Shown: positions 11,900-35,904 of the stretch, one piece after another
Layout of the letters: each line of letters begins with the position of its first letter
How positions within the stretch are numbered: position 1 is the stretch's first letter
From: Amoebophrya sp. A120
Taxonomy: Eukaryota; Protista; Dinoflagellata
Assembly: GCA_905178155.1 (NCBI GenBank)
Contig: CAJINV010000007.1
Coordinates: 3,614,265 to 3,678,264, forward strand
Direction: 5' to 3'
DNA: 64,000 bases
Program-made: the position numbers and the translations under genes
Notes under the pieces: model-generated
Databases searched by the model: none
What the model saw: the letters and a program-made list of their open reading frames with translations, nothing else
Told to the model about the DNA's origin: nothing

Positions 11900-13560
11900 G
11901 TAGATGAAAGTCCGGCACTTTGGTGCAATTTTGAGAAGGCGGGCGATGAGAAGCGAAAGCCCGGCGCCGTAAGAAGCCGAAAACCGGCCAGGGCTGAGGA
12001 CGGCACTCGGGCGATTCGTTGCGATTCCTCACCTGCGCCGCAACGGGACGGCAAGCGGGCCGGGCGGGGGAAGATAACGCGGGCCAAGGAATCCGGAACG
12101 CCCAACCCCTACGAGGCGCGGCCAAGGGCAGACGGGCGCGGTTCGCTGGGGGGGGGCGGGTCTGTATTGGCGCCGGGTATGGCGCTTCCCCGTCGAGCGC
12201 CCGCCCGCGCGGCGCCCGCTGCGTCTCGGCCCGCGTTTTCGTGCGCCGGCGCCTTCGTGAGCCGGCCCCTTCCGTTTAGATAGGAACGAGGCCCCTGGCC
12301 CGCCGGGGTCGGCAGACTCGGAGGGCCGGCCTTGGCCGGGTGGGCGGCCCGAAGGGGGCCGCGAACCGGGCGCCGCACTCGCGGCCAATATATGTTGCGC
12401 CGGGCTCCGCAAAGTACAAGCGAAGGCCGCGACGGCTGGCAGGCCGGTGGGGGGGGGGGGGCGGCAGAGGATCCCAGCGCGCACGATTGGCGTTGTTGGC
12501 AGTCCACTTCGGAAAGTGGGCAGATGGGCGCGCGGCTCCGCAGCCTGCAGAAGACCGCGCCGCCTCTGGCCGGCGTGCCGGAAAAGCGTGGGGTTGTCTG
12601 CCCGCAATCCCGGGCCCCGCAGTCCCGGATCATCTCGCCGACCTTGACGCGCTGACTTCTTGGGACTTGGCATACTCTCCGGGAGGACCTGGCCCCTTGC
12701 CGTGCCGTGCCCCGATGAATTGCGAGGCTAGGAGGCCGCCTCCCCCCGGGCAGGCAGTCTATCAATTCCCCGCGCTGAGCCGGCGCGCGCCTTCTTCCAT
12801 CAGCAGCCGGCTGAGCGCCGCTGCCATCTGTCTCCGTACGCCCTAGGGGGTTCGAAGCAACACGCGCGCGGTGCTGGACACCGCTTGCATTGGGCTACAT
12901 TTTCTCTGCGGGCGAGGCACTGCTTTCCTCTGCGAAATTTTTAGAGCAAAAGGGGCACGAGGCCGAGGAAGGAGCGGCGAACGAAGCAGGTACGGCAAAG
13001 CGCTGCCGTGTGTGTGCCCGGTGGGTGCATGCCGTGCCTGTGGGTCGTCCTCCTGATACATAGAAAGCGCGGCGCCGGCCCCGGTCGGGCCGGGAGCCTG
13101 GCGAGTGGCCTCCCAGGAGCGGACCAGACTTCCTCGCGCTCTTCATGTTTTTCGGCGAGCGGTGGCCTGTGGCCCCGCCCCCTTTCTGTGTGCCCCCCCC
13201 CCGCGGGGGCCATGCGCCGCGGGCAGCCAGCCAGCCAGCCAGCGCGCCCGCCCCTGCGTGGAGGTGGCGCGCGTTCTTTTTCTTGAGTGTTGGCGAAGCC
13301 CAAGGGCTTGCCCTTTTCTTTGTTGTGGGTCGGTGCGTCGGATGGCACCCATGTGACCTTTCTGCGGTGCGCGACCTGGCATATGTTCTTCTGTTGGTCG
13401 CCTGCTTGTACTTGTAGCACCGGTTGCCGCCGGCCGCGCCCGGCAGGCTCGCTGTCTCTCTTTGTTGGCTATCAGGCCGCGCCAATAGAGAAAGGCGGGG
13501 CGGGGGTGGGCGCCTCGTTTTCTTGGCCTGCCTGGCTTGGCCTACATCATTGTCGTATCG
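11900..13560. other. Very GC-rich, apparently non-coding block (probable repeat or TE remnant; ends approximate)
   Basis: Abrupt rise in GC and CCGG/GCGC content with poly-G/poly-C runs. ORFs in all frames are Arg/Gly/Pro/Ala-rich with no motif. No TIR or TSD found. Confidence 0.4.
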
Positions 13561-13907
13561 CAGCTACAAGATGAACGACCTCTGTTGGTGTTGCCGACCC
13601 CATTTGAATGGCGGAATTGAGTTGGGTCGTGTAGCTGATCAACCAGCGAAATTGTTCGCCACAACTACGACGAATTGCACCCATGGATGCGCTTGCCATT
13701 TATGCAGCCTCGCCCATGGTCGTGGGAGCGCAGTGTATGTAATTGCCACCGGTATCGTATGTTTGTAATACGAAACCAAAAGCGACGGACGACTGTCATC
13801 AAGGTCAAGCTGAAGCTAGGAGGGACCACAGAGAGAGCAAGGCACGAGCGGCGCAAACCTACTCACATCAGGCAATCTGTGTTTACCGAGTTCTTTTCCA
13901 TTCTTAA

Positions 13908-15405
13908 GAGCGGGGTCACAAACTCATTCGTTAACTCCCCACCGGAGTTACGGACCAACCGGCCGGGTGGTCCTTAACTCCGGTGCCCCAAATGTTGCCT
14001 TAGAGAGAGGCAACAACGAAATTAATCCTTATCCGCCCCCCCGGCGAATAAGCCGGGGGTGGGCCCCATCTTGTCCGCGCGCCGACGGGCCGCGCTGGTG
14101 TAGCCTAGGCAAAGTGACCCGGCGCCCTCATTGCCTGGAGGACCCGGATATGCCCACAGCATGCCGTCGGTCTTTGTGGTGTTGAAAAAGTAACAGGCCC
14201 AACATTTGAAAGCGCCACACTGCCGGGGTTGCTTCAGACTAAAGGACGACTGGGCAACATTTGGGGCGCGCTTGGGAAATTCGCCACGCAAGAAACTGCC
14301 GCGCAAGTAGCAACGGACACGCAATTGCAAGATCAGAGCCAGAATCTGCCCTGCAGAAACTGCTGCCATATTTAGCGCGAGGGCCAAGGAGCTTCCTCGC
14401 TTCGCGCCTTCAGGCTATTGGGTTACTTGCTAGACCATGTCGATGCCGCCTTGCTCTTGGGCAGTGGCCTAGGGTCCGAAGCGAGAGGCGCCGCGGGCTA
14501 AGGCTTTGCTTTAGCCTGCGCGCGCGGCTCCCTGAAGGAGGTTCGCCTGTGCAAACCGATGGCCATGGCCGCCCCTGCTTTTGCAATGGGTTCACTCAAA
14601 AAGACAGCAGGGCAGCAATGCCCAGGGTTGCGCACCCAGAGTCCTACCCACTCTATTAAATGTGGAGCGCCGTCGTTGGTAAAATTCCCTCCGGTGGTGT
14701 GCTCAATGTATATCATCGCACGGCAAACACGGCCACGAGGGGGGGGTAGCCATTTTCTGGGCCCCGGGCCGTGTTGTCCAATGTTTGTGGAAGCGCAAAC
14801 ATTGGGAGCGAGCGCAGCCTCCGCCGCGGCCGTAGTATTTATTTGGGCCGTGTAACTGACAGCCCCGCGCGGTCCACCTTTGTTTTCCGCCTTTTTCATG
14901 CCACCGCCGACCGACGTGCTTTAACTCTTCGCACCTTCGGCGCGGCGCAAGTGTTCCTTCGCCCGAAGTGCAGGAAGGCAGGCCATGGGGCCCAGTGAGG
15001 TTTTCTCGCCTCACCCGGTGTCGCAGCCTACTTTTGGGAAACCCGCGCGCCCCCGTTTTGTGCGACGGGTTGTGACTCGCAGCCAGCAGTCGTCGCAAAC
15101 CCCACACGCAGCGGAGCATCGCAGCCACGTAGTACGTAGCAGCGATGAGCGGGCTGTTCCCGGTTTTGGTGTAGCAGCGATGACAGTATCGCAGCCACAT
15201 GACCGGGCTGTTTCCGGTGCTGGTAGCAGTGATGACCGGGCTGTTCCCGGTTCTGGCGATAGCACTTTATTCCGGATTGTTCCCGGTTCTGGGGCTCACC
15301 AGATAGTACGTAAAGCAACATTTTGGGCACCGGAGTTAAGGACCACCCGGCCGGTTGGTCCGTAACTCCGGTGGGGAGTTAACGAATGAGTTTGTGACCC
15401 CGCTC
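13908..15405. mobile_element. Non-autonomous TIR DNA transposon (MITE-like), ~95-bp TIR, TAA TSD
   Basis: GAGCGGGGTCACAAACTCATTCGTTAACTCCCCACCGGAGTTACGG... at 13908, with its near-perfect inverse ending at 15405. TAA at 13905-13907 and 15406-15408. No transposase ORF. A 3-bp TWA TSD is consistent with PIF/Harbinger (inference). Confidence 0.9.
15135..15292 (+). repeat. Degenerate subterminal tandem repeat inside the TIR element
   Basis: Repeated units GTAGCAGCGATGA and (CC)GGGCTGTTCCCGGTT, about 3-4 copies each. Confidence 0.7.
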
Positions 15406-15445: not shown

Positions 15446-15883
15446 ATGGGCGACATCTCCGTGCACGTGATTTCCAAACTGGGCAAACCCTCTGTCGCCG
15501 ACGCCACAGTGGAGGTTTTCTACTCGGCCGACAAGTCCACCAAGCTTCTCGGCACCAGCAGCTCTTCCTCCTCGTCGTGGCAACTTCTGTCCACGACCAA
15601 CCTATCCGAGCACGGGGGGAACGACGAACTCGTGAAGCCGGGGGACTTAAAACAGGGCTTGTACGCGATACAGTTCGACTTCGCAAAACTTGACACCGCA
15701 GCCAAGCAACTGTACCGGAAAAACGAGGACGGGTCGTTTGATCCGTTGAACCCCGGCGGCTGGTTTTTGGCGAATTCCTGCGTTTTCGTGTTAGACATAG
15801 CGGACGAGAAGTCGTTCAACCACTTGGTGTTGAGCATCGGGGACAAGGAAATCACTGCTAGACCGGGCGTGAGACAGCACTGA
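15446..15883 (+). CDS. Divergent transthyretin-like protein / 5-hydroxyisourate hydrolase homolog
   Basis: Single 145-aa ORF. ISVHVI..LGKP, WQLL.TTN, LKQGLYAIQFD and NHLVLSI follow the TTR/HIUase pattern. First gene of the purine cluster. The DGR and C-terminal YRGS motifs are altered. Confidence 0.72.
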   Translation: MGDISVHVISKLGKPSVADATVEVFYSADKSTKLLGTSSSSSSSWQLLSTTNLSEHGGNDELVKPGDLKQGLYAIQFDFAKLDTAAKQLYRKNEDGSFDPLNPGGWFLANSCVFVLDIADEKSFNHLVLSIGDKEITARPGVRQH

Positions 15884-16394
15884 TTGTAGTCTTTGTTTTG
15901 AGGAAAAATGGATCCCGAGTACGGTGGCAAGGAATTCCAAGAACCAACTCTAGACGGAGAATAATAAATAAACATCAGGAGCCGCAAGAAAACACGAGTT
16001 GAAGACTCATGCGTCGCGTTGTTTCGCATTGGCATTTGAAACCACTCGTAGTGTTGTTGTTTCTGCTGGACTAGAAGAGTGCGCACTATCTACGATCTAG
16101 AAAAATCACACCTTCCCGCATAGATCATCACAAACCAGAACTACATTGCATGAGAGCGAGAGCGGAGGCAAGTACAATCGAGAGGGAGAGCACGGGCCCT
16201 CAAAAGGGAGTTGTAGGAGCAAGTGAGTAAACGATGATCAGCTTCCATGACCATCTCCGATGAAGTAGGATCCAGCTTATCTATGGATGATCATGATTCA
16301 AGGAAGATCAAAAAAAGAACATCAAGACGAAGGCCATTGGGTGGGCTAAAAATGTGAAGACGGCCGTACTTGCGGTCGTAAGTGTCGTGCCAAC

Positions 16395-19300
16395 ATGATG
16401 TCGGACGACGACTACTGCTCGGAAGTGCCGCACTTCCGCCGGTACTTGCCGTACCCAAGTCTACTCCTAAACAGCACCGAGGACACTTCCATCAATGAGC
16501 TCGAGCGCCAGCTTTTACCAACAGAGGCCGCGAGGAAGGTGTTTCGAAGGCTCCTCCAAGCCCTGTATAAGCCCCAGAAGCTCTCCGCGCTGTTTGCGAA
16601 GCGGGCCGAGGACCGACACTTCGTCGACACCATGACGAAGCACTGTTTCGAAAAGAACCAGGCGAACTTGTTGCGAAAAAATAAATCAACCAGGATTTTT
16701 TCAGACACCAGAGAAGCGGGAGTTGTAAATGACGACTCTTCTTCATACGGGAGGTTCCACGACTGGGTTGATAAGGAGTACCCCACGGTTTTGGGGAAAC
16801 AAGATTTGAGCGGAAGGGTGGTCGTTGGGACAACGAGGGAAAGTTCCTCCAGTACGAGCAAAGCAACCACGTCGTCGCCAACAACTCAGATTGCATCCAA
16901 AGGCAAAAAAGCCGTCGTAACCTACTTCGCTCCTTCGACCACTGCAAAAATCTCTGCCGACGCGATGAACTGCCTGCAGCTTTCCGCATTGGCCGGCTCG
17001 GGTGAACAAATTCCGGAGTCGATCAAAGCCAAGCTGGATTCCAAACAGTACGAGGTAATGTGGGGCGCGGACTGTGAGGATAGTTGCTCCCCCGAGCCAG
17101 TGGAATTCGTCAAATCGTGTAAAAACTTTTTAGAAGCGGCGTACGGGGATGGAATTGGATTCGGAACTACAACTACTGGCATGAAGAAAACATCTCAAAT
17201 TAAACCGGTGCAGCGTCTCCCGGGGCTGGAAGTCCCTTCCGCCGGCCACACAATGACGGAGGACAAGCAAAACCCAGCGCCGCTGCACCTGGTCGCGTTC
17301 TGCTACCATTTGGTCTACTTGTACGAAAAAAATGTTTCATCTTCAAGCGGGAAAGGAAACGCGGAAGACGAAGAGGATGTCGTAGAGGCAGCTCCACTAA
17401 ATTTGCTCTTCTACATTCCCAAAATGGAAACCGCTGCTGAAGCGGAGTACTGGCGGGACCTAGCGGATAGCGCGGAGGAGTTTTTTGCAGCGGAACTGAA
17501 GGCGAAGTTCTTTTTCAAAATCCAATACCTTGTCGTTTTCGAGAACCCCCGCGCGTTTTTGCAGATGGAGGACATCAAAGACGTGCTTTGTCGTGCGGAT
17601 GGGGACCGAAATGTTGACAACCGCAGTGAAAAAAATCCGTCGAACAAGATGAAAACTAAATCGCGTTTCGCTGGCGGGTCACTGGGTTGGCACGACTTCC
17701 TCGCGGCGACCGCAAGGCTTTTCAAGAACGACGGGAACTACGAAATACCGAGAAAATCCAGGCAAGATTTGGTGATCACGAGCATGAAGAAGAGTCACGA
17801 GAAAGTCGCCCGGGTCTGTGCGGGTAGAAGCGGGATCGACAGCACGGACGATGCGGACGGTGTGTCCTCGAGTGCTGATGGATTTGCACCCACGTTCGCT
17901 ATCGGCGGCATGTATGGGGTGATACCGCTACACCTTGCCAATAAAGACAACGATATGGATAAAAATTCCCAGCCAGCTGCAGGAATACAGCCGATGAAAC
18001 CTCCCCCTGCTAGGCAGCTTCCCTCCCTCGACAACTGGATTTACAGCGAACTCGCCGCCTTCACGGGTTTGGTCAAGGATGTCTTCACGCAGCGCGCCCG
18101 CGGCCTGCACGGCTTCTGGATTGCGCAGATAGAGTACGTGCTGCCTGCGCTTCAATTGGTCGAGATGTGGGATAACGCTAGTTCTTGCACGGAAAATGAG
18201 ACAAAGATTGACGATTCCACTGCAGCAACCACAAAAAAGGGGGACATCATCAACCTCACTCAACTGGAAAATGACCTCTCAACCCTGTTCCAACAGCGCG
18301 TTAACACCGTCTTCGACCGTCACTGCGATTTGAAGGAAGGTCTCGCGGCTCTGTCGAAGGCGGGGAAGACGCCGACGAACAGTAAGAGAACGACGAACAT
18401 TCACGCGAGGGAGTCCGTGCAGCCTTGCGTGAAACACGTATTGAAGTTTGTCAAAGAGAGTCTGCTTGTGGTGAATCAGAAAACTGCAGAAATGGCTGAC
18501 CACGCAAGTGCAGCGGCTCCTGGTGCTCTGCATCTTGATTCAGCGATCAAAACTACTGCCCAACAAGAAGCCGCTCTCATCTCAACAACCTCCTACGACG
18601 ACCGCGTGGCCCTCGCTGCGCACGTGACGGAGGACAAAAGATCCTTCGACCACGCGCAAGAAATCCGGTACAACGTACGGCAAAGTCTGCTTTACATGAT
18701 CGCGTGGCTGCAGCGGGACTGCTGCTCCCCGCTGCCGGCGGAACAAATGCTCCCGTCCGCGTCGGTCGGGGACAGCACAAAAGTTCCGGTTTTCGTCCTG
18801 GACGACTTGGCAACCTTGGAAAGGAGTCGCTGGCAGCTGTGGCACGATTTGGTCTACGGGGTTTTTGTATGCATTGCAAAAGTATCGTACTAGTATAAAT
18901 CGCAATACAAATAATTTTTCCAGAAGGAAAAATGGAATTTGTAATGCTGATTTCGCTAAGAAACAAGATTTGTAATGCATGACTGCAATTACTACGAGTG
19001 CGATACTTTTGCACAGGATATTTTGGCGAGGACAAGTTCTTGAAGATTGTCATGGAGGAAAGGGGAAAGATTGAAGAAGATGCTGGGGGGAAAGAAAAAA
19101 CCGATGAAATGACTACGAAGAAGAAAACAACTGGAATATCAACTGCTGTGGCTTGTAAAAATATTGCGGACCTGGCCGTGCGGATTCTGTTGCAACTCGT
19201 GCTGGATCGCTCCAACCCCGTGGAATTCGTGACGGAGCTGCTTGTGCCAGCGACTTTGCTGGTAACGGAACTTTATTTTGGAGAGGGATCTACTTCTACT

Positions 19301-22300
19301 TCATCGTCATCCTCCCTTTCGGCCGACGCGACTGCTTTTTCCGGCACCGTCGACGCGAAGAGCAAGAAAGCGCGTTCTGCTCCATCGTCAAAACGCCAGC
19401 TTGCTGATGAAATTGAAAAACGTCAAGAACTAAATCCACTCCTCAGCCTTCTCTACAAACACGAACGACAACTCCGGGCCACGACGAGCAAGAAGCATTT
19501 CTGGCTTCCGGACGAAAACAAATTTACGGAATTCTGCACCTATTTTGAAAAAATATGTCCAAAAGATGCGGACCTAGCGATCGCGATGGCGCAGAAGCAA
19601 GCGGAAAACGGGGATATCACTTGCGACACTGATTGCCTCACGGCGGTGACGCTCCACTATTCTTTTGGAATAAGCAGCAGTGCAGTTCCTGGAGGAGGTC
19701 CAGCATCTGGAGCAGTTTCAGGTAAAAGCTTCGAAAAAATGCAGGAGCCGTTGTACAATTTGCGGAAACTGTTTTTGGAGGAGGATCACAAGGCTGCTGC
19801 AATTGAAGCAGGAGAACCGGAAGCAGAAGAAGAGGACTCAGCCGCGATCTGGATCTCCGATACCTACCAGTTCCGTTGGCGCAAGTTGAAGAAGACCGCG
19901 GAAAGGATTTTGAAAAGGCACCCGAAAGTCCCCGGGGTGAGCTTTAGCTTGCTCAGGCCGGAAGATCATTATCATGCGACAGGTCCTCGAGGAGCTCCAC
20001 TACGGTGCAAGATCGCGCAAAATATCACCGCCGGTTTTGCGCACGGCGATTTCGAAACGATTTCGGAGCAAAGAGTTGCAGTGGGCGCGAAAGCAAACGG
20101 CGCGTCAAGAACTTCTTCTACTACAGGGACGACGAGTCAGGTGAGCAGTGGCAGAAGGCAACTGAATCTGTGTTACAACGCGAAGGAAAACAAGACTAGC
20201 TCTCCTGACTCCGCATCATACAGAAAGAAATCCTTCTCATGTGTCAGATCATCTTCCGCGACCACCAGCGGATCCAACAGTCAGCTTCCACTCTTAGAAG
20301 AGGAAGAGGACGAGTTGGAGCACAAACCCAATCTCCTCCGACCCGGTCACAAACTCCAAATCGCTTCCCTATCGAAGACGATTGCAGCGGCAATGGCTTT
20401 GGAGCATTTCAAGAAGGAAAAGATCAACGTCTTTACCACGTCCGTGAATGAAGAGTTCAGGAGAATTGCGAGGAAAAGGAAAATGAAGTTGGAAGACACT
20501 TTTCAACTGCAAAATGACCCGTCTTTGATGACGAAAACAAGCGAAGTAGAGGGGGAGACAAAAACGGAGGGCTCGTTCGCCGAATCCGTGAAGATCTGCC
20601 ATTTGATGAACCACTGCGGGTTAGGAATGCACTATATGGCGTTCTCGAGCGTTACATTCTCAACTGTTACATGATTTGTCATGCAAAATGAGCATCAACG
20701 TCCACACGGTGAAGCTACTTCGCATGACAAATTTTTGAAGGGCTAAACAGCATGGGAATCTGTGCCAAAATTGTAATGCAAGAGTTGCAAGATCCGCCCT
20801 TTCCCTGTTGCCATTCTTGCATGACAAATCCATGTAACAGTTGAGAATGTAACAATTGAGAATCCCATACACTACGTGTTTGGCTTGGAGAAAAGACCGA
20901 GGATAAAGTACCTTCTGGACAACCTGGAGAAGCACAAGTACGATCCGGAGGGGTTGATCGTCACTAGGAAACCTGGCTCGAAATTCCAGTACAGCGGCGG
21001 AGGGTTTCTGGTCCTGCAATTGTTGCTCGAGTTTTCCTACGACGATAAGCCGATCGGGGAAATATTGAGGACGGAGTTTCTGGCGAAAGCGGGAGGAAAT
21101 TCTGCTTTGAGGAAGTGGAACGTGTTCTCGACACATGAGGAGCTGTTGGAAGCGAGCACTGGTAGTTTTGGCGTGTTAAATGTTGAAAAACCGAATAAAG
21201 CTAGTGCCGGGACGTCTCCACTTATTCCCGCTGGCATTCCCGAAGGGCAACCACCGAAAATCCCCCCCGGAAGCGAATTTGCCAACGGTTACAAGGACGA
21301 CGGGTCTGTAGTCAGCCGGCTTTTCTTCCCCGAGCTCGCGGCTGGTGGGGAGTGTAGCTGCTTTGAAATGGCGGGATTTCTAGCCGATCTGTGCAATGCG
21401 TACAACGCAACATCAGAGACAGAAAACGATGATGTGCATCAAAGAACTGCAGCTGCTGGTGCAGAAGAACGTTCACCTTCGAACCACTACACCTTCCCGA
21501 TCTCCCACGACACGGCTGTGCAAATGCTGTACACCGACGGCAGGTTGGACAACGGATGTCAAGATTTTATGAAATCGGACCAGGGGCTCGGCACTTTCGT
21601 CACCTCGGTCGGACCCAACAAGGTCGCCTGCCACCAGGCGGCGAACGACGGATTTCGGGGCTTGTACTTAGTCTGTCTCAAAGGCCCCGACTGCGGGAAG
21701 GGAATTGTTTTGGTTTCCAATGGAGACAACGCCGCGGTCCCGTTTAATTGCGAGCTGGTTGCAGAAGTGTTGAGAATCGAGGGCTGGACCGGGTTGAAGA
21801 AGAGGCAAGAGAATGCAAAGCAGAGCACAAGCACTACTATTGCAGCATCTTCTGCCGCAGCTTCTTTCGATGTTGTCAGCCAAAATCTAAAACAAGCGGA
21901 AATTGTGAACCAGGGTCTGAAGCAATTGCTATTCGAGAAGCACTTCCAAGAAGACTTGCCAGCGGACAACCCTACCTGGGTGAAAAAACGGAGGAAGAAG
22001 GACGTTATTTCTGAAGCGAATGTAATATCCCCGTCAACTGTGAAAATCTTGAAGTGCAGCGACCAGCGGTTTTCGAGGGTGTCGAACTTGTTCAACAGTC
22101 AGTTCCTTCCGGTGTTTGAGCTGACCGCCTTCGGCCCCGACGGGAAGATTATGGACAGTTGGGAGACAAAGCGGCATTGCACGATAGAAGAAGGCGACTT
22201 TGTCCGCTTTTCGATTTCTGGTAACCCGCAACAGCGGAACAATTGCTTCAACTTGGTCTACATCAGCACTATTTATCACGACGGGAACCACGCGCCGGGG

Positions 22301-23488
22301 TGTGATTTGCGAATGGTGGATGGAAAAACAGGCGGCGCAATAAAATCTCTCTTCAACGGCAAAATCGAGCTACAGGGCCACTCCGCACATTGGATCTACC
22401 TACCAGAAAAGATCGACCCTTGTTCCGCGGACGATGAAGGAAATAGAACCGTTTTCGAGTTCCGCAACATTCCGGACGGTGGGATCTCCCGCCTTGGCTT
22501 CTTCAATAAGGATTACTTGTTGAGCCGCATTGCGCAGTTGGCAAAGGAGGCGGAAATTGGAGCGGAGGATCCTGAGCAATGGGCGGATTACATGGGATTT
22601 ATGAACTGGTATTACGATCTACCGAAGAAGCCAGCGGAGCCTGAAATTTTCCGAGCCCGCTACAAATTCGAAATCGGTAATCAGCAGAAGGAGCACGACG
22701 ACGCAACTCTTGACAAAGAGAACAGCGAAACTTCTGATGTAAGGGTTTCTGCTGCGGGTAACGTTGCTGCAGATCTTACAGACTCTTTTGCCGAGAATGT
22801 CCGCCTAAGCGCTGCGTCAGATGGCGCATCAAAACCATCGCTATCAAAGTTCGAACTCGTCAAGGTCACCAACCAGCACTATGGGAAGGCAGAGAGACTG
22901 TTTTCCTCAGACCCGCCTCTAGGTATGCATGACGGGTTTGAGACGAAACGAACCCGTGAAGTGGACGGGTTTCAAGAGGCAGTGTTTCGGGTTCCGGTAC
23001 TGATAGATAATTTCTAGATGAATCTAGGTACTTCTACTTTCTACAATACATGTTTGCGTTTGTGATTCCTGTATTCTTTGAACATACTGCTTCAGTTTTA
23101 CCTACGTCAACGAAAAAGAACCAAAACTTTTGTACAAAACAAACACCAGCATTCCCTGCTCCACGGCACGAGAACGAGCAGGCAGAAGCTTTCCGGCGCG
23201 GAGTTCGACTTTACCTATTTCGTCAACAACAATCCATCCTATGTCGAACTGCTATTGGGTGATTCGGAAACCGACCTGACCACCCAGCTGGTGCCAAAAA
23301 CGTTTTCCAAGCCGTACCGGGGAGACAAGATGGTGGTACCGATTACGGTGCAGCACGAGTTTGAAGAGGACAGTAGCGACGAGGAAGAGGAAATATTAGC
23401 ACAGCAGTTTGTCTTCATTGCAGTGAGGCTGTTCCCCTGTGGAGGGGTGAACAGGTTGAAATTTTTGTACAACGCTGGAGGTTCTTGA
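16395..23488 (+). CDS. Triple fusion: malate synthase-like + beta-lactamase-family (SxxK) serine hydrolase + allantoicase (~2,170 aa, 4 exons)
   Basis: Exons 16395-18867, 19026-20634, 20875-22996 and ~23186-23488 (last acceptor uncertain). Malate synthase motifs: GADCEDSCSP, FYIPKMETAAEAEYW, VVFEN, AIGGMYGVIP, GLHGFWIA, LDDLATLERSRWQLW. Serine hydrolase motifs: KVPGVS, QIASLSK, HLMNHCG, PGSKFQYSGGGF, FPELAAGG, HQAANDGF. Allantoicase repeats: MDSWETKRH...DGNHAP...PDGGISRL and HDGFETKR...FVNNNP...PCGGVNRL. Both domain junctions lie inside uninterrupted ORFs. Confidence 0.87.
18868..19020. mobile_element. Introner family A copy (5-bp DR TTTTG)
   Basis: TATGCATTGCAAAAGTATCGTACT...AGTGCGATACTTTTGCACAGGATA. 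TTTTG at 18863-18867 and 19021-19025. Removal gives YGVFG-EDKF in frame, whereas the nearby GT(18861)-AG(19016) pair does not restore frame. Confidence 0.9.
20635..20869. mobile_element. Introner family B copy, opposite orientation (5-bp DR CACTA)
   Basis: TATGGCGTTCTC...GAGAATCCCATA. CACTA at 20630-20634 and 20870-20874. Removal gives GMHY-VFGL. The interior is the reverse complement of the 6116-6443 interior. Confidence 0.92.
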
Positions 23489-24076
23489 TCAAGATCGACG
23501 TCCTATCGATGATTCTGTGCGATACTACCGTGGACTTTTTCAAGGAAATTTTTGCAAGAGACCTATATCATGTACATCTTTGGACCGCAGATCGGTTTTG
23601 CGCATGCAGTTTCAATTTGAGTTTTTCCACGCAAGCAATAGCAAACAATAACAATCCATTTCTTGCTGGTATCTATCTGCTCGGAGGTGCAGGCGCTTCT
23701 ACAACCAAATACCTTGGCCGGCGTCGCCCTAGTGGTAGTGCTTCGTAGCGGAGGTGATCAGCTCATGCACAGCATTACCATCACCATCACGAACACGAGC
23801 GCACCATTGAGACCATTAAGATAAGCGAGAGTCTCAGTGAAGAATGCTTTGGGTTCGGACCACAACCTGGAGCGGCTAGAAGCAGAAAGTGTTGAGAATG
23901 AGAGCACCTGCGGCCAGCTAGGAGGGAGAGCGAGCGCGAGTGTCACGGATCTAATTCCGATTGTTTTTCTACGAGGTTCGTATGAGCTTCAAATGCCAAC
24001 GCGCGAGTAAAGATTCACTTTATTCACCAGGAGAAGATTCAAAGCAAAGCTGCAACCCGTTTCTCCAGCAGCGACC

Positions 24077-27000
24077 ATGCCGGTCCGTTTTTCTCTGAAC
24101 GGTCTGACGCACGAGGTGCCTGACGAAAATTTCGACATCGAACTGACAGTCCTGCAATACCTCCGAAAGTTCACCACCCTCCACGGCACGAAACTGGCCT
24201 GCGGCGAAGGCGGCTGCGGCGCGTGCACCGTGCTACTCTCCGAGCTGCCAGACACGAATAAAGATGGGAAAAGTAAACGTGGTGTGAAGCACAAAGTTGT
24301 CAACGCGTGCATTTTTCTTCTCGCGGACGCGCACGGGAAGCATGTGACGACAATCGAGGCCGTGTCGGAGATCACGAGGAACGAGAATGGGAAAGAGCAG
24401 CTTCATCCGCTACAACAGTCCTTGGTTGATCACCATGGCTCCCAATGCGGGTACTGCACGCCCGGGTTTGTCGTCAGCATGCTGCCGACGTTTCACGATG
24501 GTGTCTCCACAAAGAGCGGGACATCATCAAACCGGCATGTTGAAAACGAAAAAACCATTCACGACACCGATATCGAGGAGGTTTTGGACGGGAATCTCTG
24601 CCGCTGCACGGGATACCGGTCGATTTTGCAGTCCTTCAAGACTGCTTTCAAAGATGAATACGGGAAAAACGACAAGTGTACGGGGAAGAAGTTTGGGGAG
24701 TTTGTGGACAAAGTCGTTTTTCCACAGTTGAAGAAGCTGCAAACGACGACGGCCGTTTCGACCACGGCACCCGGCGCTAGTCCTGCTGCCGCGTTGAAAA
24801 CCGTGATAAAGCACGAAGGTGTACAAGGCGCGGTCGTCTATCCCGGTACCTACCACCAACCGACCACAGTGCAGGAAGCGATCCAGATCGCAAAGTCTAG
24901 CGGGAATTTCCGCTACCAAGCGGGCGCGACGGAACGGAAGATCGAGCAGTTGAAGATTTCTGGGCGGTTTAAGTACCCGCTGGACCTGATCTCCCTGAAC
25001 AACATAGAGGAAATTTGTTCGGAGAAACACATGGAACTCGTGGATGTTGATCAGGACCTAGTTCCATCGAAAAACAAAAAATTCGAAGACCTCGTTCCGG
25101 AAGTGCAGTTTACCATTCCTGCCAATCTGCCCCTCGCGGACATTGAAAATCGGTTTCGGAAGTTTCTGGACTTTTCGAAACATGCAAAAGACCAGCAGAG
25201 CAGCTACATCGCGCAGGTGATACGAGCCTATTTGGAAATGTTCAAATGGTTTGCGGGACACCAGATCCGGAACGTTGCCACTTTTTCCGGAAATTTAATC
25301 ACCGCAAGTCCGATCGCGGACTTGGCGCCGGTGCACATGGCCGTGGGGTGTAAGGTTGAGGTCGCAACTGATGAGGGGGACGGTGGAGCGGCACCTTCAC
25401 AGGCGGCTTCTGGTGCTGGTGGAACTACGGCAGCCGCAAAGAAGACAAAGCCGCGTAAGTCCTTCCCGATTGACAACTCGTTTTTCACGGGGTACAGGAA
25501 AACGGTTTTATCCGACAGTCCAACCGACATTTTACACTCTTTCCACATCCCTTTGGGGACAAGAGACGGGTCGGACGAGAGAAATGTGCTGAAGAAGGAT
25601 CATGTCGGGGAACATCAAGGCCGCGAAGTGAGTGTCACATACAAGAAGTTCATCCGGGCCTACAAAGCGTCGAGACGGAAAGAGGACGACTTGAGCATTG
25701 TCAACGGTTGCTTCTTCGTCGAAATGGCAGTGGAAAACACGACCATCAGCAGTCAAAAAGAAGAGTTGTACGAAGAAGAAACCACAATCCCCACAGTGCA
25801 GTCCTGCCGGTTCGCGTTCGGCGGGTTAGCGCCCTTCACCCGCAGGTGCACACCCTTGGAAAAGTTCTGGGAAGGAAAAAAGTGGACGAGCGAGAATTTC
25901 CAGACGTCCATCCCGCTGATCACCGACTTTTTCCAGCTGCCCCCCGACGTCCCAGGCGGCATGCCCATGTTCCGGAAGTTGTTGGCGCGAAGTTTGTTTT
26001 TCAAGTTTTTCAAGGAAGTGGAAGAGGAAATCTTCGGGCCGGAATCGCCGGTGAGGTTGTTGAAGACCACAACCGCAGCTACTGTGCAGCGGCCAAAGAG
26101 AGCAAAGACGCAAGAAAAATCTTCTTCATCTGTTGATCAGCACAACAAGCTTAAGCTTGCCCTGTCACAGCACTCTCCGAAATCTCTGCTTTCAATGCAA
26201 GACGCTCCGATGGCACACCAGCACTTCCCGATCGACAAAATCGGGGATATGAACAAGACCGCGAACACCCGTCACCTTGCGGCGCATCTGCACGTCAGCG
26301 GAAAGGCGGCCTACAGCTACGACCAAGTTCTCCCGGCGACAGCCTGTAACGCGGGTGGTGCGGGGAGCGGTGATACAGATTATGCTGGACGATCTGGAAA
26401 AAACAGACATTATCCGAAAACCAACCCGACCGACACGATGTTCGTTGATTTCGTTCTCTCCAACAAACCGCACGCCAAAATCAAGTCCTTCGATTTCTCT
26501 GAAGCGGAAAAAGTAACCGGCTACATCGGCAATCTGACTCTCGAAGATCTCAACTTCTGCAAGACGGTCGGACCGATCATGCACGACGACGAGATTTTTC
26601 CAGCGGACAACGTCGTCAACCACTTGGGCCAAGTGGTCTGCTGCGTAGTCGCGGATTCTCGGGAGGCGGCGAGAGAGTGCGCGATGGTGACGAGCATTGT
26701 GTGGGACGAAGAAACCAAATTCGATTTCACCATCTCCATTGAAGAAGCGATTGCGAAAAAAAGCTTCCACCATGTGCTTTTTGTGCCGGAGGAGAAGAAA
26801 CACAAACCGCACCAGGTGTGGACGCAGCGGGAACCAATAGGGACGAAGTCGTTTGAAGAAGTTGAGCGGTTTTTTAAAAGAGGAGGGGATGTGTTACAGA
26901 CACGGAAGCAAGGTGAAGGCGAAGCACTTCCCCCGCCCGTTGTGGACGATAATGATACCCCGACTGGGAGTAAAGATCCCCGTTTGTCTGACGGCGAAGA

Positions 27001-30000
27001 GGAGGAACCTGAAGCAAAACAAAAACCACCACAAGCCACGAAATTTCACTCCAGGTTGAAGGCCACTTCCAATTTTTTCCACACGGGAAAACTCCAACCC
27101 CGCGTCGCCCCCCAATCCGGCAAAGACACCCCGCTCGCCTTCACCCGGAGATTACAAACCAGTCTCCCCCCGCCAGCGACGTTCATCCCCCCGCTGCGAC
27201 TCCTTTCGGAGCAAATGGACAAAGAGAAGGCGGCGAAAAAGGCGGTGGACGACGCGATCGCGAAACAGAAGGAAAAACCGCAAGTGGATGTTCTTGAACC
27301 AAAAGCACATAATTCAGATTTCGAAGAAATCCAGTCTGAGATTTACATGGGCGGGCAGGAGCATTTTTACTTCGAAACGCACTCGACCGCGGTGGAAATG
27401 TTGTCAAACAACGAGGAAGTCATAGTCTACAGCTCAACGCAGAACGTCGCGGAATCGCAGGCGTTCATATCCGAGGTGTGCGGCATCCCGAATCACAAAG
27501 TCCACGTAAAGGTGACGCGACTAGGTGGCGGCTTCGGCGGAAAGGAGACGAGAAGTTGTCTCCTCGGGGTCTACCCGGTGTTAGCGTGTCAGAAATACGG
27601 GAGAAATCAGCCTGGCGGGGTTGGAGCGAACAAGTGCAAGTTTCTACTCGAAAGAGACACGGACTTCAAATGGAGCGGGCAGAGACACAGCTTTGTCGCG
27701 CAGTACCGAATGTTGTTGAACAAAAAGGAGAAAAAGATCCAGGCGATTGACTGCAAGTTGTTCGCGAACGCGGGGTGCTCGTACGACTTGTCTAATCCGG
27801 TGTTGAACCGCGCGATGCTGCATGTGGAGAACTGCTTGAACATCGAGAATTTGCGCGTGCAGGGCTTTCTGTGCAAAACCAACATCCCGTCGAATACCGC
27901 GTTTCGGGGATTCGGCGGCCCGCAGGGGTTGTTCGTCGCGGAAACGATGTACCAGAAGGCGGCGGACTATCTGGGAGTGAGTAGGGAAGACTTGTACGAA
28001 AAACAGATGTACAGATCTTTAGTAGCATTAAGGTCGCCGAAAGGGAGTCAGAGGAAGGAGCTGGCGCTTTGTTCAGGTGGTTCAGGAGCATCTCCAGAAA
28101 AGGCCGCTGCAACATCACCAACAAAAGGGGGTACGGGAAGGGCGCACCAAAATGATCGCAAGTCCGAGTTCACCCAAGCCGCTGCTGCGAGCAAGGGAAG
28201 TCTGGAGGACACGCCGGCTTTGGCAACAGGCTCGAACCATTCGTCTCCGAGTAGCAAAAGGATAGTCCTTCCACCGCAGCAGCAGGTAGTACAGACCCCG
28301 CTTTTCAACCTCCAACCCGCGGGACCACATCAACTCGGCTTGCAGCAAACGTCGGGCGACTTGCTGAAACAAAAGCCGAAATTGAAGCTGCTGAGTAGCA
28401 CCGGATTATTACAGTTGAAGACGGCCGCGATTCAACTACCAAAGCCCATCGATTTGAAAAGAAAGCAGGAAAAAAACAAAAACCTCCATACAACTACACA
28501 GGGAAACGGCTTTTGGCGGCCGACAGTCAACGAAAACGCAGCGGAAGAGGACAAAGAAGATCTGACCTTCTACAACCATCCCATCGGTACCCATGTGCCG
28601 ATTCGGGAAATGGTGAAACAGATCACTGAAAAGTCGCAGTTCAAAAGCCGGCAAAAAGAAATCGAGGACTTCAACAAGAAGAACAAGTTCGTGAAACGCG
28701 GAATCGCTTTGATCCCTACGAAATACGGGATTTCCTTCACGGCGAAGCACTTAAACCAGTCCGCCGCACAGGTGAACCTGTACAAAGACGGCACTATTCT
28801 CCTCCACCACGGCGGACACGAGATGGGCCAGGGGGTGCATACGAAAGTCGCTTCTATCGCTGCGCTGATGTTCGGGGTGCCGATAAAGTTAGTGCACGTC
28901 ATGGAGACCGACACCAGTAACATTCCGAACACCAGCCCGACGGCGGCGAGCACGGGGTCGGACTTGAACGGGTTTGCGTGTCAGATGGCGTGTGCGGAAC
29001 TGCTAGAGAGGTTGGAAAAGATTTTGAAAAAGCACGGGCTGAAAGTCGTTGCGGATAATGAGGAAATGTTAATGAACGTGAACAAATCGTACAGTAGAAG
29101 AAGAACCAGCACGGCCGGGGAGGAGATCGTAGACCGGATCCCGACGAAAAGCACGGTGAAAGGAGGGAAAGAAGTAGATGAGGGAGTGGACGAAGAGAGC
29201 TCTGCTGACGATGGCGCTGATGTTATTTCCACCGGCGGCGGACAGGGACACAATCCCAGCAAAATCCCGTTCAGGAGGATCGATTGGACTTTGTTTGAGC
29301 AATCTTTGTCACCTAAAGCAACTGCTGCAACCGAGACAAATCGCGACGAACTCCTATTGCTGGAGAAGCAGAAGCTGCTCTCCAAAATCGCTACCGAGGC
29401 CTGGTTCAACCGGATCAACCTGTGCGGCCGCGGGTTTTATGCGACGCCGATTTCCGGTGTGGACTGGGGAAAGTTATCGAATGAAAAAATGTCTGGGTCT
29501 CGAAGAATGCGCGATTTGTCATGCAGCTTTTCCATGACGCATGAGGTCTGGAATGCAGGACCTAGCATGACAGATTCTGTGCGATCTCTCTCATGCCTAT
29601 CCTGCGTGAGAAACTCCCTCCCGACTTGGTCAAAACTGGAGGACTTTTGGCAATCATGCAACGCAGATAATTTATTTTGCATGCTTCAGATTTAGCATGA
29701 CAAGCTGCATTCTTCCAGACCCAGACACTTTTACATTTGATAAAAGTCGGGGAAGAATGAATTCACGGGGGAGCCGTTCTACTACTACTCCTGGGGCGTT
29801 GGGGTGAGCGAAGTGGAGGTAGACACGTTGACCGGCGATTTTCAGACGCTGAGAACGGATTTGATCCACGATGTGGGGCGATCCTTAACGCCGTTGATCG
29901 ACATCGGGCAAATCGAGGGCGCGTTTACGCAGGGTTTGGGATTGTTCACGAGTGAAGAAGTGATCTACTTGCAGAACAAGGACAGAAATTCCGCGAGCCA

Positions 30001-30511
30001 CTTCTCCGTCGGCCCCGGGTTCTACAAAATCCCTGCGGTGGGGAACTGCCCGAGGCGGTTTGAAACACATTTGCTAGAAAATTCCCGCGGCCCGAGCGTG
30101 CTGGGGAGTAAGGCGATCGGCGAGCCGCCGTTGTTTCTCGCGTGTTCGGTCTTCTTCGCGATAAGGGAGGCGTGCCTAGCTTTGGTTTCGGACAAGAAAA
30201 TCAGGAACAAAATCGCGAAGGACATCCGGTTCGACTCCCCGTTAACGGCGGAAAGAATACGGGTGAAATGCGCCCAGATTCTGTTTTTGGCAGGAGAGCA
30301 AGGGAAGAAAAATTCTGCCGCAGTAGAAAAGGAAGTTGGCGAAGAAAGAGCTGAGGTTGCAGTTGCTGCAGGAGAGCGGGAACGGAATGAGGACTTCCCT
30401 GTGGTTGACCCGGAACTCGCTGCCCTCCATCAGGATCTCTTTGAGGATTTCTCCGAGCCCTGTGTTGCCACCGCGTTTGAAAAAGTTCAACACTGGCATG
30501 CCAGGGTTTAG
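24077..30511 (+). CDS. XDH: Xanthine dehydrogenase/oxidase (2Fe-2S, FAD, Moco domains) with long low-complexity insertions
   Basis: Motifs GTKLACGEGGCGACTV, SQCGYCTPGF, GNLCRCTGYR, FAGHQIRNVA, GGQEHFYFE, RLGGGFGGKE, TAFRGFGGPQG, EMGQGVHTK and SKAIGEPPLFL. Removing 29475-29747 gives DWGKSGKNEFTGEPFYYYSWG...SEVEVDTLTGD. Confidence 0.95.
29475..29742. mobile_element. Introner family C copy (5-bp DR AAAGT)
   Basis: TATCGAATGAAAAAATGTCTGGGTCTCGAAGAATGC...GCATTCTTCCAGACCCAGACACTTTTACATTTGATA. AAAGT at 29470-29474 and 29743-29747. Reverse-orientation homolog of 63346-63611. Confidence 0.92.
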
Positions 30512-31278
30512 GGCTTGGCAACGAGAGTACAGTCCGGAACTCGGAAGTACAGTACTTTCATGGTGCAGCAGCTGGTAACGCGGACGCTGGTGCTGGTCAG
30601 TCTCGTGTTGGGGTCTCTTCTGTGTAGTGAGCACGACACTGAGATGCTATTTCAAGTTCCTAGAAACTTTTCAAAAGACCACAACATCCCGGCTGAACTC
30701 CGCATCGCCATCTACAGTATGTATGAGTCTGCTTCTCCACATCTGTCTCCTGTCTCTGCAATACCAGGAATTAATAGCACTTGATGTGTTGGCCTTATCC
30801 TTGTACTTTTGCAAAGACAGCAGGGGCACGAGCAGCTGCACAGCGATTATGTCGGTTTTTGCAAGTGCTTTTCCAAGAAACTGCGGTTGCGACTGTTACG
30901 ATAGAGGCATCGCAAATCTGTCTGTCTTCTCTTCTGTCGAAGAAGAAATTTCGGTCGACCTCCAAAAGTGGTCTCTAAGTACATGATTCGCATCTGATTT
31001 ATTTCCTGCTTCTTGCTGCAAGGATCTTTGTTACTCTGTCGGCTTAGTTGCAACCCAGATCACCTTTTGCACTTCCACCTGTGCAGGGTCATCATCGGAT
31101 ACCAGGAAAATTTTTCAAAAAGAATTTCCTCCTACACCTACAACTTTCCGTGTACTAAGAAACAAAGTTGCTCCACCTCGGCGACCCTGAAAAACTAAAT
31201 CACTCACGACGTCACACCAGAAGCAATCTCGACCAAGGGCAAGGTCGTGTCATCTCTTGCTCGCGCTATTCCAGCAAG

Positions 31279-33404
31279 ATGAGCGCCACGATCGTCGCGC
31301 ACAGCCACGGCAAGGCTTCGGTGAAGCTCCTGCGCCTCGCCCGGTCCGGCGAGGATGGGACCGGGCGGCACGAGATGAAAAAGTTCAACGTGCAGATCAA
31401 GCTCCACGGGACGGAGAAGCCGAAAAAAGCCTTCACGAGCCCCGACAACTCCGGTTGTGTTGCGACGGATTCCATGAAAAACACGATTTACGTATTGGCG
31501 CAAAAAAACCCGCTCTGTTCCAAGGAAAAGTTCTCGATCATCGTGGCGAGCCATTTCATCGGGTTGTACCCCCATTTAGTGGACAAAGCGGAGTGCTTGG
31601 TCGAAGAGGAAGTCTGGGAGAGGGTAAGTGTGGATGACCAACCACACAACCACTGTTGGCGCTTGCGATCCGGGACGAATGACGTCCGCTGGTCGAAGTG
31701 TATCGCCGGCGGCGAGGCGTTTCAGAAGTACATCGCGAAAACATATGGGACGAGAGGGAGTACAACTTCTGAATGGAGATTTGTTTTCAAAAGTTTTGAT
31801 GATGTCTGATTCTGCCCACTGTTCTGGTCGTGTTGAGCCAATCTGATACACTTCGCAAATGAAGATTGATTGGTCTGCGTGCACTACTGCAGCAATTACA
31901 ATTTGATTTCGATCACACACGACACTCTCAGGCTGTCTCCTCACTAGCGGTGTGAAAGCGATGACACTTCTAAAATCCACCCAGTCCGCTTGGGAAAAAT
32001 TCGTCCGTGACGGCTACACCTTGTTACCTGACACGACCAACCGAATTCTCGCCTCCGCCATCGATGTCGAGTGGGCTTTTCGGGAGACGCCAAAGATGCC
32101 GGTCACCGCCAACGCGGCGGCAGCCGCTGCTGGTAGGCTTTTTTGTGATTCGGACACATCATCATGATGCGCAAGTGAGTTTCGTCAACGCATGTGACGC
32201 GGTAAAAGAGTCGACGAGGTTGAGCTTGTTAGTGTTAAAAGCCACAGTGCTGACATATGGAGAAATACATTTTCTATCAAAAAATCACACAGACTCGCCC
32301 AACTTCCCCGACTACGACGCTTTCTCAGAAAAAGTTGAAAAAATCCTGATCGACACACTTTGCGGCCCGCCAAACAAAGGCGTCTACAGTACCTCTGTCC
32401 AAGCAACCGTCCACGACATGGCACAGGCCGTGATGTCCAAACACGGGGACTTCATCGAAAAAATCAGCCTCTTCGGCCCGAACCTGCACCACATCCCGTT
32501 TGATTTCTCGAGACTCAACAAAGTCTTGCCGCAAGAAACTTTACCGGAAAAACCGGAAGTTTTCATCGCAACGTCCGAACCCCGGGGGATCATCGAGGTC
32601 ACCTGCAGCATTCCAGCCGGGGACAAGCAGATCGGCCACGTGTTTGACCCACTACCGCGCTCCCCGAAGGCATCAGGAGCTGCATCAAGCGGAACTGCAC
32701 CAGGAACAGAAGACCAAACCGCGACTGGAGATGCTGGTGCACCACCCCCGCCCCCTTTAACCGACATCGAGCTGACCGAGCAGAAAACGGGCGGCCGGAA
32801 CATGAACTTCTTGCAATTTTTGAAGATCACAACCAGACAGCAGTTTCTGGCGAAATTTGACGGCATTTACGAGAAATCGCCGTGGATTTTGGAGTCCGCC
32901 TGGCCCGTGTATGCCTGCGCGATGGATTTTCAGAACGCGTTTGACTTCTTCAAGCACATAAAATCCGTAGTTCAATTTGCAAACGAGGAGAAGAAGTACG
33001 CCTTGCTGCGCGCGCACCCGGATCTCGCCGGCAAGTTGGCCATCGCGACCTTCAAAGTCGTGGGAGACCCAACTCCAGGAGAGCAGGCGGCTGGTTCGCC
33101 GACGAGTGAAGGCGCTGCACCTCCAGTAGAGAAACTCACTACGGAGAGCCAGAAGGAGCAGAAATCCGCGGGGCTTGACCAGTGCAGTGAGGAGGAATTC
33201 AACAAATTTCAGGCCTTGAACGACAAATACAAGGAGAAATTCGCCTTCCCGTTCATTCTCGCGGTGTCGGGGAGGAGTCGGGCAGAAATTTTGGAAATTT
33301 TTGAAAAGCGGATGGAGAACACGGTGGAAGCAGAGTTCGCCGAAGCGATTTCGCAGGTACATAGGATCGCCGAAATCCGCGTGAAGAAATTGCTTGAGTG
33401 TTGA
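31279..33404 (+). CDS. Urate oxidase (uricase) fused to C-terminal OHCU decarboxylase
   Basis: GT-AG introns at 31760-31931 and 32133-32292. Uricase motifs: HGKASVKL, VATDSMKNTIY, LKSTQSAWEKFVRDGYTLLP..NRIL, STSVQAT, PNLHH, EPRGII. OHCU decarboxylase motifs: IYEKSPW, AHPDLA, SQKEQKSAGL, YKEKFAFPFILAV, QVHRIA.IR. The fusion junction is within one ORF. Confidence 0.92.
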
Positions 33405-35650: not shown

Positions 35651-35904
35651 ACAGCAGGGGAGCTTTTCTCATTTCAAGATGACGAGTGCGAGTGGCCAGT
35701 CGAAGTTTGATAAGTGGACATCGAAGAGAGGAACTGCAACGTCGCAACCGCCGTGAGTCGGTGGTAGCGCTCATCTTAATTTCTATCTTCATCAATTTTC
35801 TAGCTGTATTTCGTTCATCTTCATTATCATGTAGAAGTCACACCTACACGCAGTTTCGGTTTCTCCGTTCTTCTGAAAGCCGGACTTGTTTGCGACAAAG
35901 CACG

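Follow-up and report, generated by a model that had tools for sequence, protein, structure and literature searches.

To our knowledge, two folds of allantoinase have been described: the metal-dependent amidohydrolase TIM barrel of AllB/DAL1 and the metal-independent polysaccharide-deacetylase fold of PuuE/HpxB. In the class C beta-lactamases, attack of a serine on the lactam carbonyl is the established chemistry of a third fold. One step further along purine breakdown, Dembech et al. described malate synthase (MS)-like proteins in which the glyoxylate site is kept, Arg276 is replaced and the coenzyme A (CoA) site is lost as ureidoglycolate lyases, and a bifunctional lyase/synthase was proposed as their ancestor (PMC10120013). 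The locus described here lies in a 64,000-nucleotide stretch of Amoebophrya sp. A120 (contig CAJINV010000007.1, positions 3,614,265 to 3,678,264), referred to below as the window. A single gene in it joins an MS-like module, a serine hydrolase module with an S-x-x-K motif (the SxxK module) and two allantoicase repeats. Gene context, exclusion of AllB, distribution and Rosetta-stone fusion together make it quite probable that the SxxK module represents a third, serine-based class of allantoinase.

The four-exon fusion gene is confirmed. Four open frames lie in its region, all on the + strand, and the joined exons give 2,180 aa with a single terminal stop, in agreement with the spliced frame of ~2,170 aa proposed in an earlier note on this DNA. 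The parts of the gene are as follows.

16395..18862, + strand: exon 1, MS-like TIM barrel with the first part of its C-terminal domain (profile, residue mapping)
18863..19020, + strand: intron 1 (splice inferred), a non-canonical, highly repeated element of the introner type that carries a 5-nt direct repeat
19021..20629, + strand: exon 2, last MS-like helices (to ~19258), linker (~19259-19927) and first part of SxxK (profiles)
20366 and 20375, + strand: codons of the SxxK residues Ser1272 and Lys1275, in exon 2; the module spans aa ~1126-1723
20630..20869, + strand: intron 2, non-canonical introner-type element that splits an invariant H-Y-V motif (skipped in X1/X2 contigs)
20870..22995, + strand: exon 3, rest of SxxK (Tyr1400 at 20990, His1614 at 21632, to ~21961; profiles)
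~21995-22510 and from ~22853, + strand: allantoicase repeats 1 and 2, in exon 3
22996..23148, + strand: intron 3 (skipped in X1/X2 contigs)
23149..23488, + strand: exon 4, remainder of allantoicase repeat 2 with the stop codon (Pfam, RNA-type contigs)

The motifs IASLSK (from 20360, Ser codon 20366), QYSGGG (20987) and HQAANDGF (21632) continue in frame into the two allantoicase repeats, and the positions and frame given for them in the earlier note were verified. Its statement that the MS C-terminus shares an exon with the SxxK motif held in part: the last helices are in exon 2, but the domain straddles intron 1 and the MS_C match (aa 769-838) is in exon 1. A public A120 model, P0001 (1,413 aa), is 100% identical to residues 768-2180 and has the same three junctions; it begins at Met768, and the entire MS-like barrel (window 16395-18695) is left out of it.

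Transcript support came from contigs of the RNA-type runs X1 and X2, which are one sample; no listed run with matching contigs is recorded as RNA, and the listing covered 24 of ~7,460 pieces and 15 of 130 joints. Introns 2 and 3 are skipped in these contigs. A single 3,763-nt contig spans 19511-23666 across both, thus joining the SxxK and allantoicase exons, and with another that covers 19152-19537 the overlapping contigs reach 19152-23666. Exon 1 is covered in parts only, at low depth, and the intron 1 junction is absent from the 15 joints listed, so that the single transcript foreseen in the earlier note is borne out for introns 2 and 3 and not for intron 1. In the raw-read run X7 (2026), 1 read of 3.3 million aligned to the locus. 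The intron 1 splice is inferred from the same junction in P0001, from repeat-element ends at 18868 and 19020, and from gap-free collinearity with P0002, the ortholog from Amoebophrya sp. AT5.2. Placing the intron at 18868-19020 was rejected as out of frame, and 25 in-frame GT/GC-AG alternatives were set aside, each adding or deleting residues relative to the ortholog. Introns 1 and 2 have a summed contig depth of 40,000-127,000 versus 43; they carry 5-nt direct repeats and have ends that start with TAT, and they match the introner elements described for A120 (PMC7789003).

Pfam on the window frames recognized allantoicase clearly, and malate synthase and beta-lactamase weakly, below cut-off. 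In this check, which the earlier note had proposed for the spliced protein, allantoicase lies above cut-off and the protein's own MS and beta-lactamase parts below. Profiles built from 52 bacterial homologs matched all three modules of the window protein (MS, E 2e-97; SxxK, 3e-90; allantoicase, 2e-58). The allantoicase part of P0001 scores 71.3 bits with PF03561 in 2 stretches, above the Pfam cut-off, and 68.7 bits with the allantoicase equivalog TIGR02961, far from its cut-off of 277.9. It resembles yeast allantoicase DAL2 (1SG3) in its two jelly-roll repeats and in the motifs D-x-W/F-E-T-x-R and P-D-G-G-x-x-R, but the A120 repeats form a divergent subfamily under the TIGR02961 cut-off.

The architecture is widespread. 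A search of other organisms, as the earlier note had proposed, gave 220 long relatives. Among the 120 listed, 118 combine MS, beta-lactamase and allantoicase, and 114 also carry OHCU decarboxylase (UraD). The bacterial order is MS-like / UraD / SxxK / Alc / Alc, where Alc is an allantoicase repeat. In A120 the place of the decarboxylase is taken by the exon 2 linker (~19259-19927), in which the domain is undetectable; neither Pfam nor a family-specific profile matched UraD in the fusion protein. The A120 protein keeps 55 of 57 conserved columns in SxxK, 50/55 in Alc, 124/184 in MS and 9/23 in UraD, and by these comparisons appears to have lost the OHCU decarboxylase module of the bacterial four-module fusion. 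Named sources of homologs include Bdellovibrionaceae, Oligoflexus, Planctomycetes, Deltaproteobacteria, Percolomonas and Amoebophrya AT5.2. P0002 is one 2,310-aa model and another relative, P0004, one 2,001-aa protein. In a FastTree tree of 119 of the 196 near-complete rows, A120, AT5.2 and P0004 are grouped (97) on a long branch; the tree does not place the origin of the eukaryotic copies. The closest A120 relatives, P0004, P0249 and P0372, were met in marine assemblies and in the protein set of a copepod (Oithona nana), the latter possibly derived from a parasite in the sample.

In an alignment of 120 proteins, the Ser, Lys, Tyr and His of the SxxK motifs S-L-S-K, Y-S-G and H-Q-G/A-A-N-x-G-F-R are 99-100% conserved. 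S-x-x-K (S1272/K1275) and Y-S-G align with the class C catalytic motifs; Y-S-G is invariant, and the Asn of the class C Y-x-N is replaced by Gly. An AlphaFold2 model of the SxxK domain of a bacterial homolog (predicted local distance difference test score 93.7) matches the R61 DD-peptidase (3PTE) with a template modelling (TM) score of 0.72 and 19% identity, and also D-amino acid amidase, esterase and class C structures with TM ~0.7 and ~20% identity. On this model, the module is a serine beta-lactamase/penicillin-binding-protein-like fold without a close characterized relative. With PF00144 (gathering score 27) P0001 reaches 22.5 bits, below that score, and the eight homologs scanned all reach 32-99; with the class C beta-lactamase profile NF033085 (cut-off 415) the homolog P0034 scores 50.7 bits and P0001 has no match. 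An ESM Atlas search with a stand-alone SxxK homolog returned generic beta-lactamase clusters only. The module shares with the serine beta-lactamase/DD-peptidase superfamily (R61, D-amino acid amidase, class C, esterase IS11) the fold, the S-x-x-K, the catalytic Tyr and a His-led third motif. It differs in its ~20% identity, in Y-S-G for Y-x-N, in motifs found in this family alone (H-Y-V, F-P-x-x-A-A-G, H-Q-x-A-N-x-G-F-R), in its fusion into purine catabolism and in the peroxisomal targeting signal type 1 (PTS1) that ends some stand-alone forms.

An unfiltered HMMER search for the module gave 307 representatives at E 0.001. It also occurs as SxxK-Alc and as stand-alone proteins of ~400-470 aa, including Prymnesium and Emiliania records; a PTS1 tripeptide ends 8 of 50 stand-alone homologs, with 0.14 expected from shuffled tails. 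The A120 protein has neither an amidohydrolase TIM barrel (AllB/DAL1, TIGR03178) nor a polysaccharide-deacetylase domain (PuuE, TIGR03212), and an AllB query had no match in the 64-kb window. Compared with AllB/DAL1 and PuuE/HpxB, the SxxK module occupies the same slot in the urate operon and is predicted to catalyze the same reaction, but its fold is unrelated and the predicted covalent serine mechanism would not need metal ligands. A precedent in another fold is the opening of a cyclic ureide ring by a Ser-Lys dyad, as proposed for cyanuric acid hydrolase/barbiturase (PMC4051656), from which the SxxK module differs in fold and substrate; homology is not claimed.

The pathway step is indicated by genome context. 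Of 396 genome loci, 80 were fetched; UraH is nearby in 70, a PuuD-type urate oxidase in 64 and xdh genes in 15-17. Fifty genomes from these loci, chosen for long contigs, were searched for PuuE, AllB and AllA, and none of the three was present above cut-off in any. Two steps are thus without a known gene in genomes whose fusion has two odd modules. Sub-cut-off PuuE matches (10/50 genomes, <=34 bits) were rejected as paralogs, as were the six best sub-cut-off AllB loci, which are dihydroorotase (5) and dihydropyrimidinase (1). The bacterial order MS-like / OHCU decarboxylase / SxxK / allantoicase puts SxxK between the allantoin-making and the allantoate-using enzymes.

The distribution was surveyed in 301 genomes sampled evenly from the phylum Bdellovibrionota, mostly metagenome-assembled genomes (MAGs). 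The SxxK subfamily is present in 38, AllB in 26, PuuE in 0 and UraD in 62; five weak SxxK matches (E 1e-17 to 1e-20, N-terminal half only) had been dropped before counting as generic family members. The anti-correlation that the earlier note proposed to test is found for AllB: the 62 UraD genomes divide into 37 with SxxK only, 24 with AllB only, 1 with both and 0 with neither (Fisher test, p = 2.6e-16). AllB operons, seen in 12 regions, read puuD-allB-alc-uraD-uraH plus DUF6986 or AllA. In the 26 AllB genomes this remaining slot is filled by DUF6986 (22), AllA (3) or stand-alone MS-like genes (1), and neither DUF6986 nor AllA occurs in the 37 SxxK-only genomes. Slot for slot, SxxK replaces AllB, and the MS-like module replaces AllA or DUF6986.

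DUF6986 (PF22484) has a weak match to the MS TIM barrel, is the last gene of the AllB-type urate operon in 22 of the 26 AllB genomes and never occurs with AllA (L220:10761-12113, L221:10605-11972 and L223-L227; genomes G054-G326). It is a candidate unrecognized ureidoglycolate lyase.

The direction of the two replacements, SxxK with AllB and MS-like with AllA, is fixed by P0274, 1 of 30 proteins scanned. This 1,004-aa protein of the EukProt Polykrikos kofoidii transcriptome set consists of SxxK, a PF04115 ureidoglycolate lyase (114 bits) and a canonical allantoicase (348 bits, above cut-off), and ends in SKL. Since a canonical ureidoglycolate lyase here stands beside SxxK in one chain, SxxK itself is unlikely to have that role. 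The protein would be a separate fusion that spans the steps from allantoin to glyoxylate. A different assignment, in line with the second option of the earlier note, would have SxxK free glyoxylate from ureidoglycolate, the MS-like module act as a true malate synthase, and an unlinked cyclic amidohydrolase such as dihydroorotase open allantoin. The absence of AllA from the 50 fusion genomes, the CoA-pocket motifs kept in bacterial MS-like modules, some amidohydrolase homolog in 48 of the 50 and the coexistence of AllB and SxxK in genome G291 would all fit. It is nevertheless disfavored by P0274, which has no MS-like module, by the amidohydrolases checked, which are pyrimidine enzymes, and by the eroded CoA pocket of A120 together with the known MS-like lyases (PMC10120013). 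This assignment is very improbable.

SxxK proteins are often promiscuous amidases or esterases, and it might be argued from this that the module acts on another ureide compound (oxalurate, hydantoin, or an allantoin enantiomer in a racemase-like step) or is a non-catalytic scaffold. The closest solved structures, peptidases, amidases and esterases at ~20% identity, and the Gly in place of the Asn of Y-x-N are consistent with such a role. However, 37 genomes would then have a full urate pathway minus allantoinase, and a scaffold would not account for the invariant catalytic residues; this reading is quite improbable. A serine-dependent allantoinase, the first option of the earlier note, is instead supported by the gene context, the AllB exclusion and the P0274 fusion.

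The MS-like module keeps the catalytic residues R274, E383, D434 and D804, equivalent to R166, E250, D278 and D447 of E. coli malate synthase A (MSA), as well as M330 and W365 (W575 in A120). The replacements R276W and W277H are family-wide (119/119 homologs). The acetyl-CoA adenine pocket is formed by I94, T95, G96, M102, M330 and P369 (PMC3112382); the A120 residues are Y, F, A, I, M and I, and M330 alone is kept. The A120 changes relative to E. coli MSA are G96A, M102I, N105D, H368Q and P369I. Bacterial modules keep G96, M102 (or L), N105 and H368-P369; this His-Pro, which caps the pocket, is present in 114/119 homologs and lost in A120, AT5.2 and P0004. Malate synthase A (E. coli AceB, 3CUZ; yeast DAL7 in the DAL cluster) is the best PDB match and shares the six kept residues, but the A120 module has changed adenine-pocket residues and falls far under the family cut-off (TIGR01344, 594.5; exon 1, 21.6 bits; P0034, 124 bits).

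The closest described counterpart is the MS-like ureidoglycolate lyase of animals, Amoebozoa and SAR (zebrafish DrMSL/UGL, PMC10120013), with which the module shares the MS-A fold, the kept glyoxylate site, the replaced R276, the eroded acetyl-CoA site and a link to allantoicase. Arg276 is Trp in A120 and Ile in zebrafish; acetyl-CoA site loss is found in A120, AT5.2 and P0004 and not in the bacterial homologs. The module differs in having R276W/W277H rather than R276I, in keeping W365, in being part of a fusion, and in having bacterial relatives that keep the CoA motifs. Residue comparison thus makes the A120 module a likely ureidoglycolate lyase, held with less assurance than the allantoinase assignment. 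Because the acetyl-CoA pocket residues are changed and MS-like proteins are known as ureidoglycolate lyases (PMC10120013), the malate synthase label of the earlier note, and the channelling of glyoxylate into malate that it proposed, are doubtful for A120.

It is conceivable, if rather unlikely, that SxxK is the allantoinase and that the MS-like module has stayed a malate synthase, or else forms malate and urea from ureidoglycolate and acetyl-CoA as a bifunctional lyase/synthase. The four catalytic residues, M330 and W365 are kept, a bifunctional ancestor has been proposed (PMC10120013), and 27 of the 50 fusion genomes have no separate full-length malate synthase A. Set against these are the family-wide R276W and W277H, the loss of His-Pro in A120, AT5.2 and P0004, the A120 MS columns, which are kept less well than those of the SxxK and Alc modules, and a separate malate synthase A-type gene in 23/50 fusion genomes (7 above cut-off, 16 full-length below). 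A malate-forming module is plausible for the bacterial proteins and less so in A120. A120 has been reported to possess a full glyoxylate cycle as well as purine breakdown, with the main text naming no allantoin enzymes (PMC7789003). A second, sub-cut-off malate synthase A type (L098-L110, 479-527 bits) was seen in 16 of the 50 genomes, with some frames of ~970 aa. These frames are apparently fused to a neighboring ~430-aa gene, which we take to resemble isocitrate lyase.

Several observations weigh against an SxxK allantoinase in a three-module chain. Over all 301 genomes the Fisher test is not significant (p = 0.22), the value of 2.6e-16 overstates independence because whole operons are inherited by kin, and most surveyed genomes are incomplete MAGs without completeness figures. 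G291 carries AllB and SxxK-allantoicase together. P0274 is a single sequence from one transcriptome and could stem from prey or be chimeric. The Trp365 to Met change of zebrafish UGL is not present in the MS-like module (W575 kept), and the C-terminus of the A120 protein has no PTS1. RNA-type contig depth is ~4 over exon 1 versus 16 from 19511 onward, a step that makes a shorter SxxK-allantoicase transcript possible.

G291 has an AllB-UraD fusion, a canonical allantoicase, SxxK-Alc and a single-repeat allantoicase frame (L217, L218, L234, L239), together with two stand-alone MS-like genes and an adjoining class V aminotransferase. Its two allantoicases and two MS-like genes fit a doubled pathway, though it is still an exception; it could be a mixed MAG.

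The depth step near 19511, the missing intron 1 joint, the start of P0001 at Met768 and the split forms of the fusion that occur in bacteria (G148, G291) would also suit two genes at the A120 locus, one MS-like and one SxxK-allantoicase, or a decaying MS part. This is improbable: the MS C-terminal domain runs across intron 1 into the SxxK exon, RNA-type contigs overlap over 19152-23666, and the AT5.2 ortholog and P0004 are single chains of 2,310 and 2,001 aa.

As one chain, the three-module A120 protein likely takes allantoin to glyoxylate and two ureas. The following steps are proposed: i) Ser1272, activated by Lys1275/Tyr1400, would attack a ring carbonyl of (S)-allantoin; ii) the hydantoin would open as an acyl-enzyme, from which water would free allantoate; iii) the allantoicase repeats would convert allantoate to ureidoglycolate and urea; and iv) the MS-like barrel would split ureidoglycolate at its glyoxylate site into glyoxylate and a second urea. 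The upstream steps would come from neighboring xanthine dehydrogenase (XDH), uricase-OHCU decarboxylase and HIUase-like genes.

Taken jointly, the following picture seems slightly better supported than not. A serine beta-lactamase-fold enzyme would be a third, unrelated allantoinase class in predatory bacteria, planctomycetes and many marine protists, either as part of a fusion or as a stand-alone peroxisomal protein. The Amoebophrya form would share one chain with allantoicase and an MS-derived ureidoglycolate lyase whose loss of the CoA site was separate from that in the animal enzyme. The module of the bacteria may represent the missing bifunctional lyase/malate synthase, and DUF6986 a further unrecognized ureidoglycolate lyase.

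A literature search, with most subscription papers outside its reach, found none on the fusion, a beta-lactamase-fold allantoinase or DUF6986. The available text of a 2026 urate-catabolism review names the two known allantoinase types alone, without the words "lactamase" or "serine hydrolase" (PMC13751858), and that of PMC10120013 does not mention the fusion or a lactamase. Another alveolate has an ordinary allantoinase (PMC6320678). The eukaryotic three-module form with an eroded CoA site, the AllB complementarity in 62 genomes, the SxxK-AllA-Alc fusion, the peroxisomal stand-alone forms and the DUF6986 link are new here. A serine acyl-enzyme allantoinase, if true, would give the penicillin-binding/beta-lactamase superfamily a natural cyclic-ureide substrate. 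It would also close a gap in the pathway of Bdellovibrionota, haptophyte-type algae and Syndiniales, and would put right annotations such as "serine hydrolase" or "malate synthase". [quoted passage not shown]

The fusion gene is one of four purine-catabolism genes in tandem on one strand (window 15446-33404), a metabolic cluster of operon-like layout in a syndinian genome. Its neighbors are as follows.

15446..15883, + strand: divergent HIU hydrolase/transthyretin-like open reading frame, a lead (30/30 ESM Atlas matches to PF00576, score 0.91)
24077..30511, + strand: xanthine dehydrogenase, downstream (open frames 24011-29695 and 29744-30508; Pfam)
31282..33404, + strand: uricase and OHCU decarboxylase, downstream (Pfam; region also delimited as 31159-33404)

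The earlier note had counted homologs of the upstream steps in the cluster; Pfam confirmed XDH, uricase and OHCU decarboxylase, and the HIU hydrolase is supported by language-model features alone, with no match by Pfam, NCBIfam or the UraH profile. The latter frame presumably lacks the usual HIUase C-terminal motif; its RNA-type contig depth is 84-158, above that of the fusion gene. The second uricase repeat and UraD are in one open frame, an apparent Uox-UraD fusion as read from unspliced frames, and this neighboring gene supplies the step lost from the A120 fusion.

Elsewhere in the window are the following genes.

598-8041: Nipped-B/HEAT-like gene
35683-37386: ankyrin repeat gene
38408-42798: myosin gene
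43831-45296: WD40 gene
55369-56703: metallophosphoesterase gene
60045-62165: glycosyl hydrolase family 5 gene

The GC-rich stretches at 48264-49317 and 53109-53840 resemble each other, contain near-identical spurious frames and are a duplicated repeat, and further GC-rich islands lie at 12001-14000 and 34001-36000.

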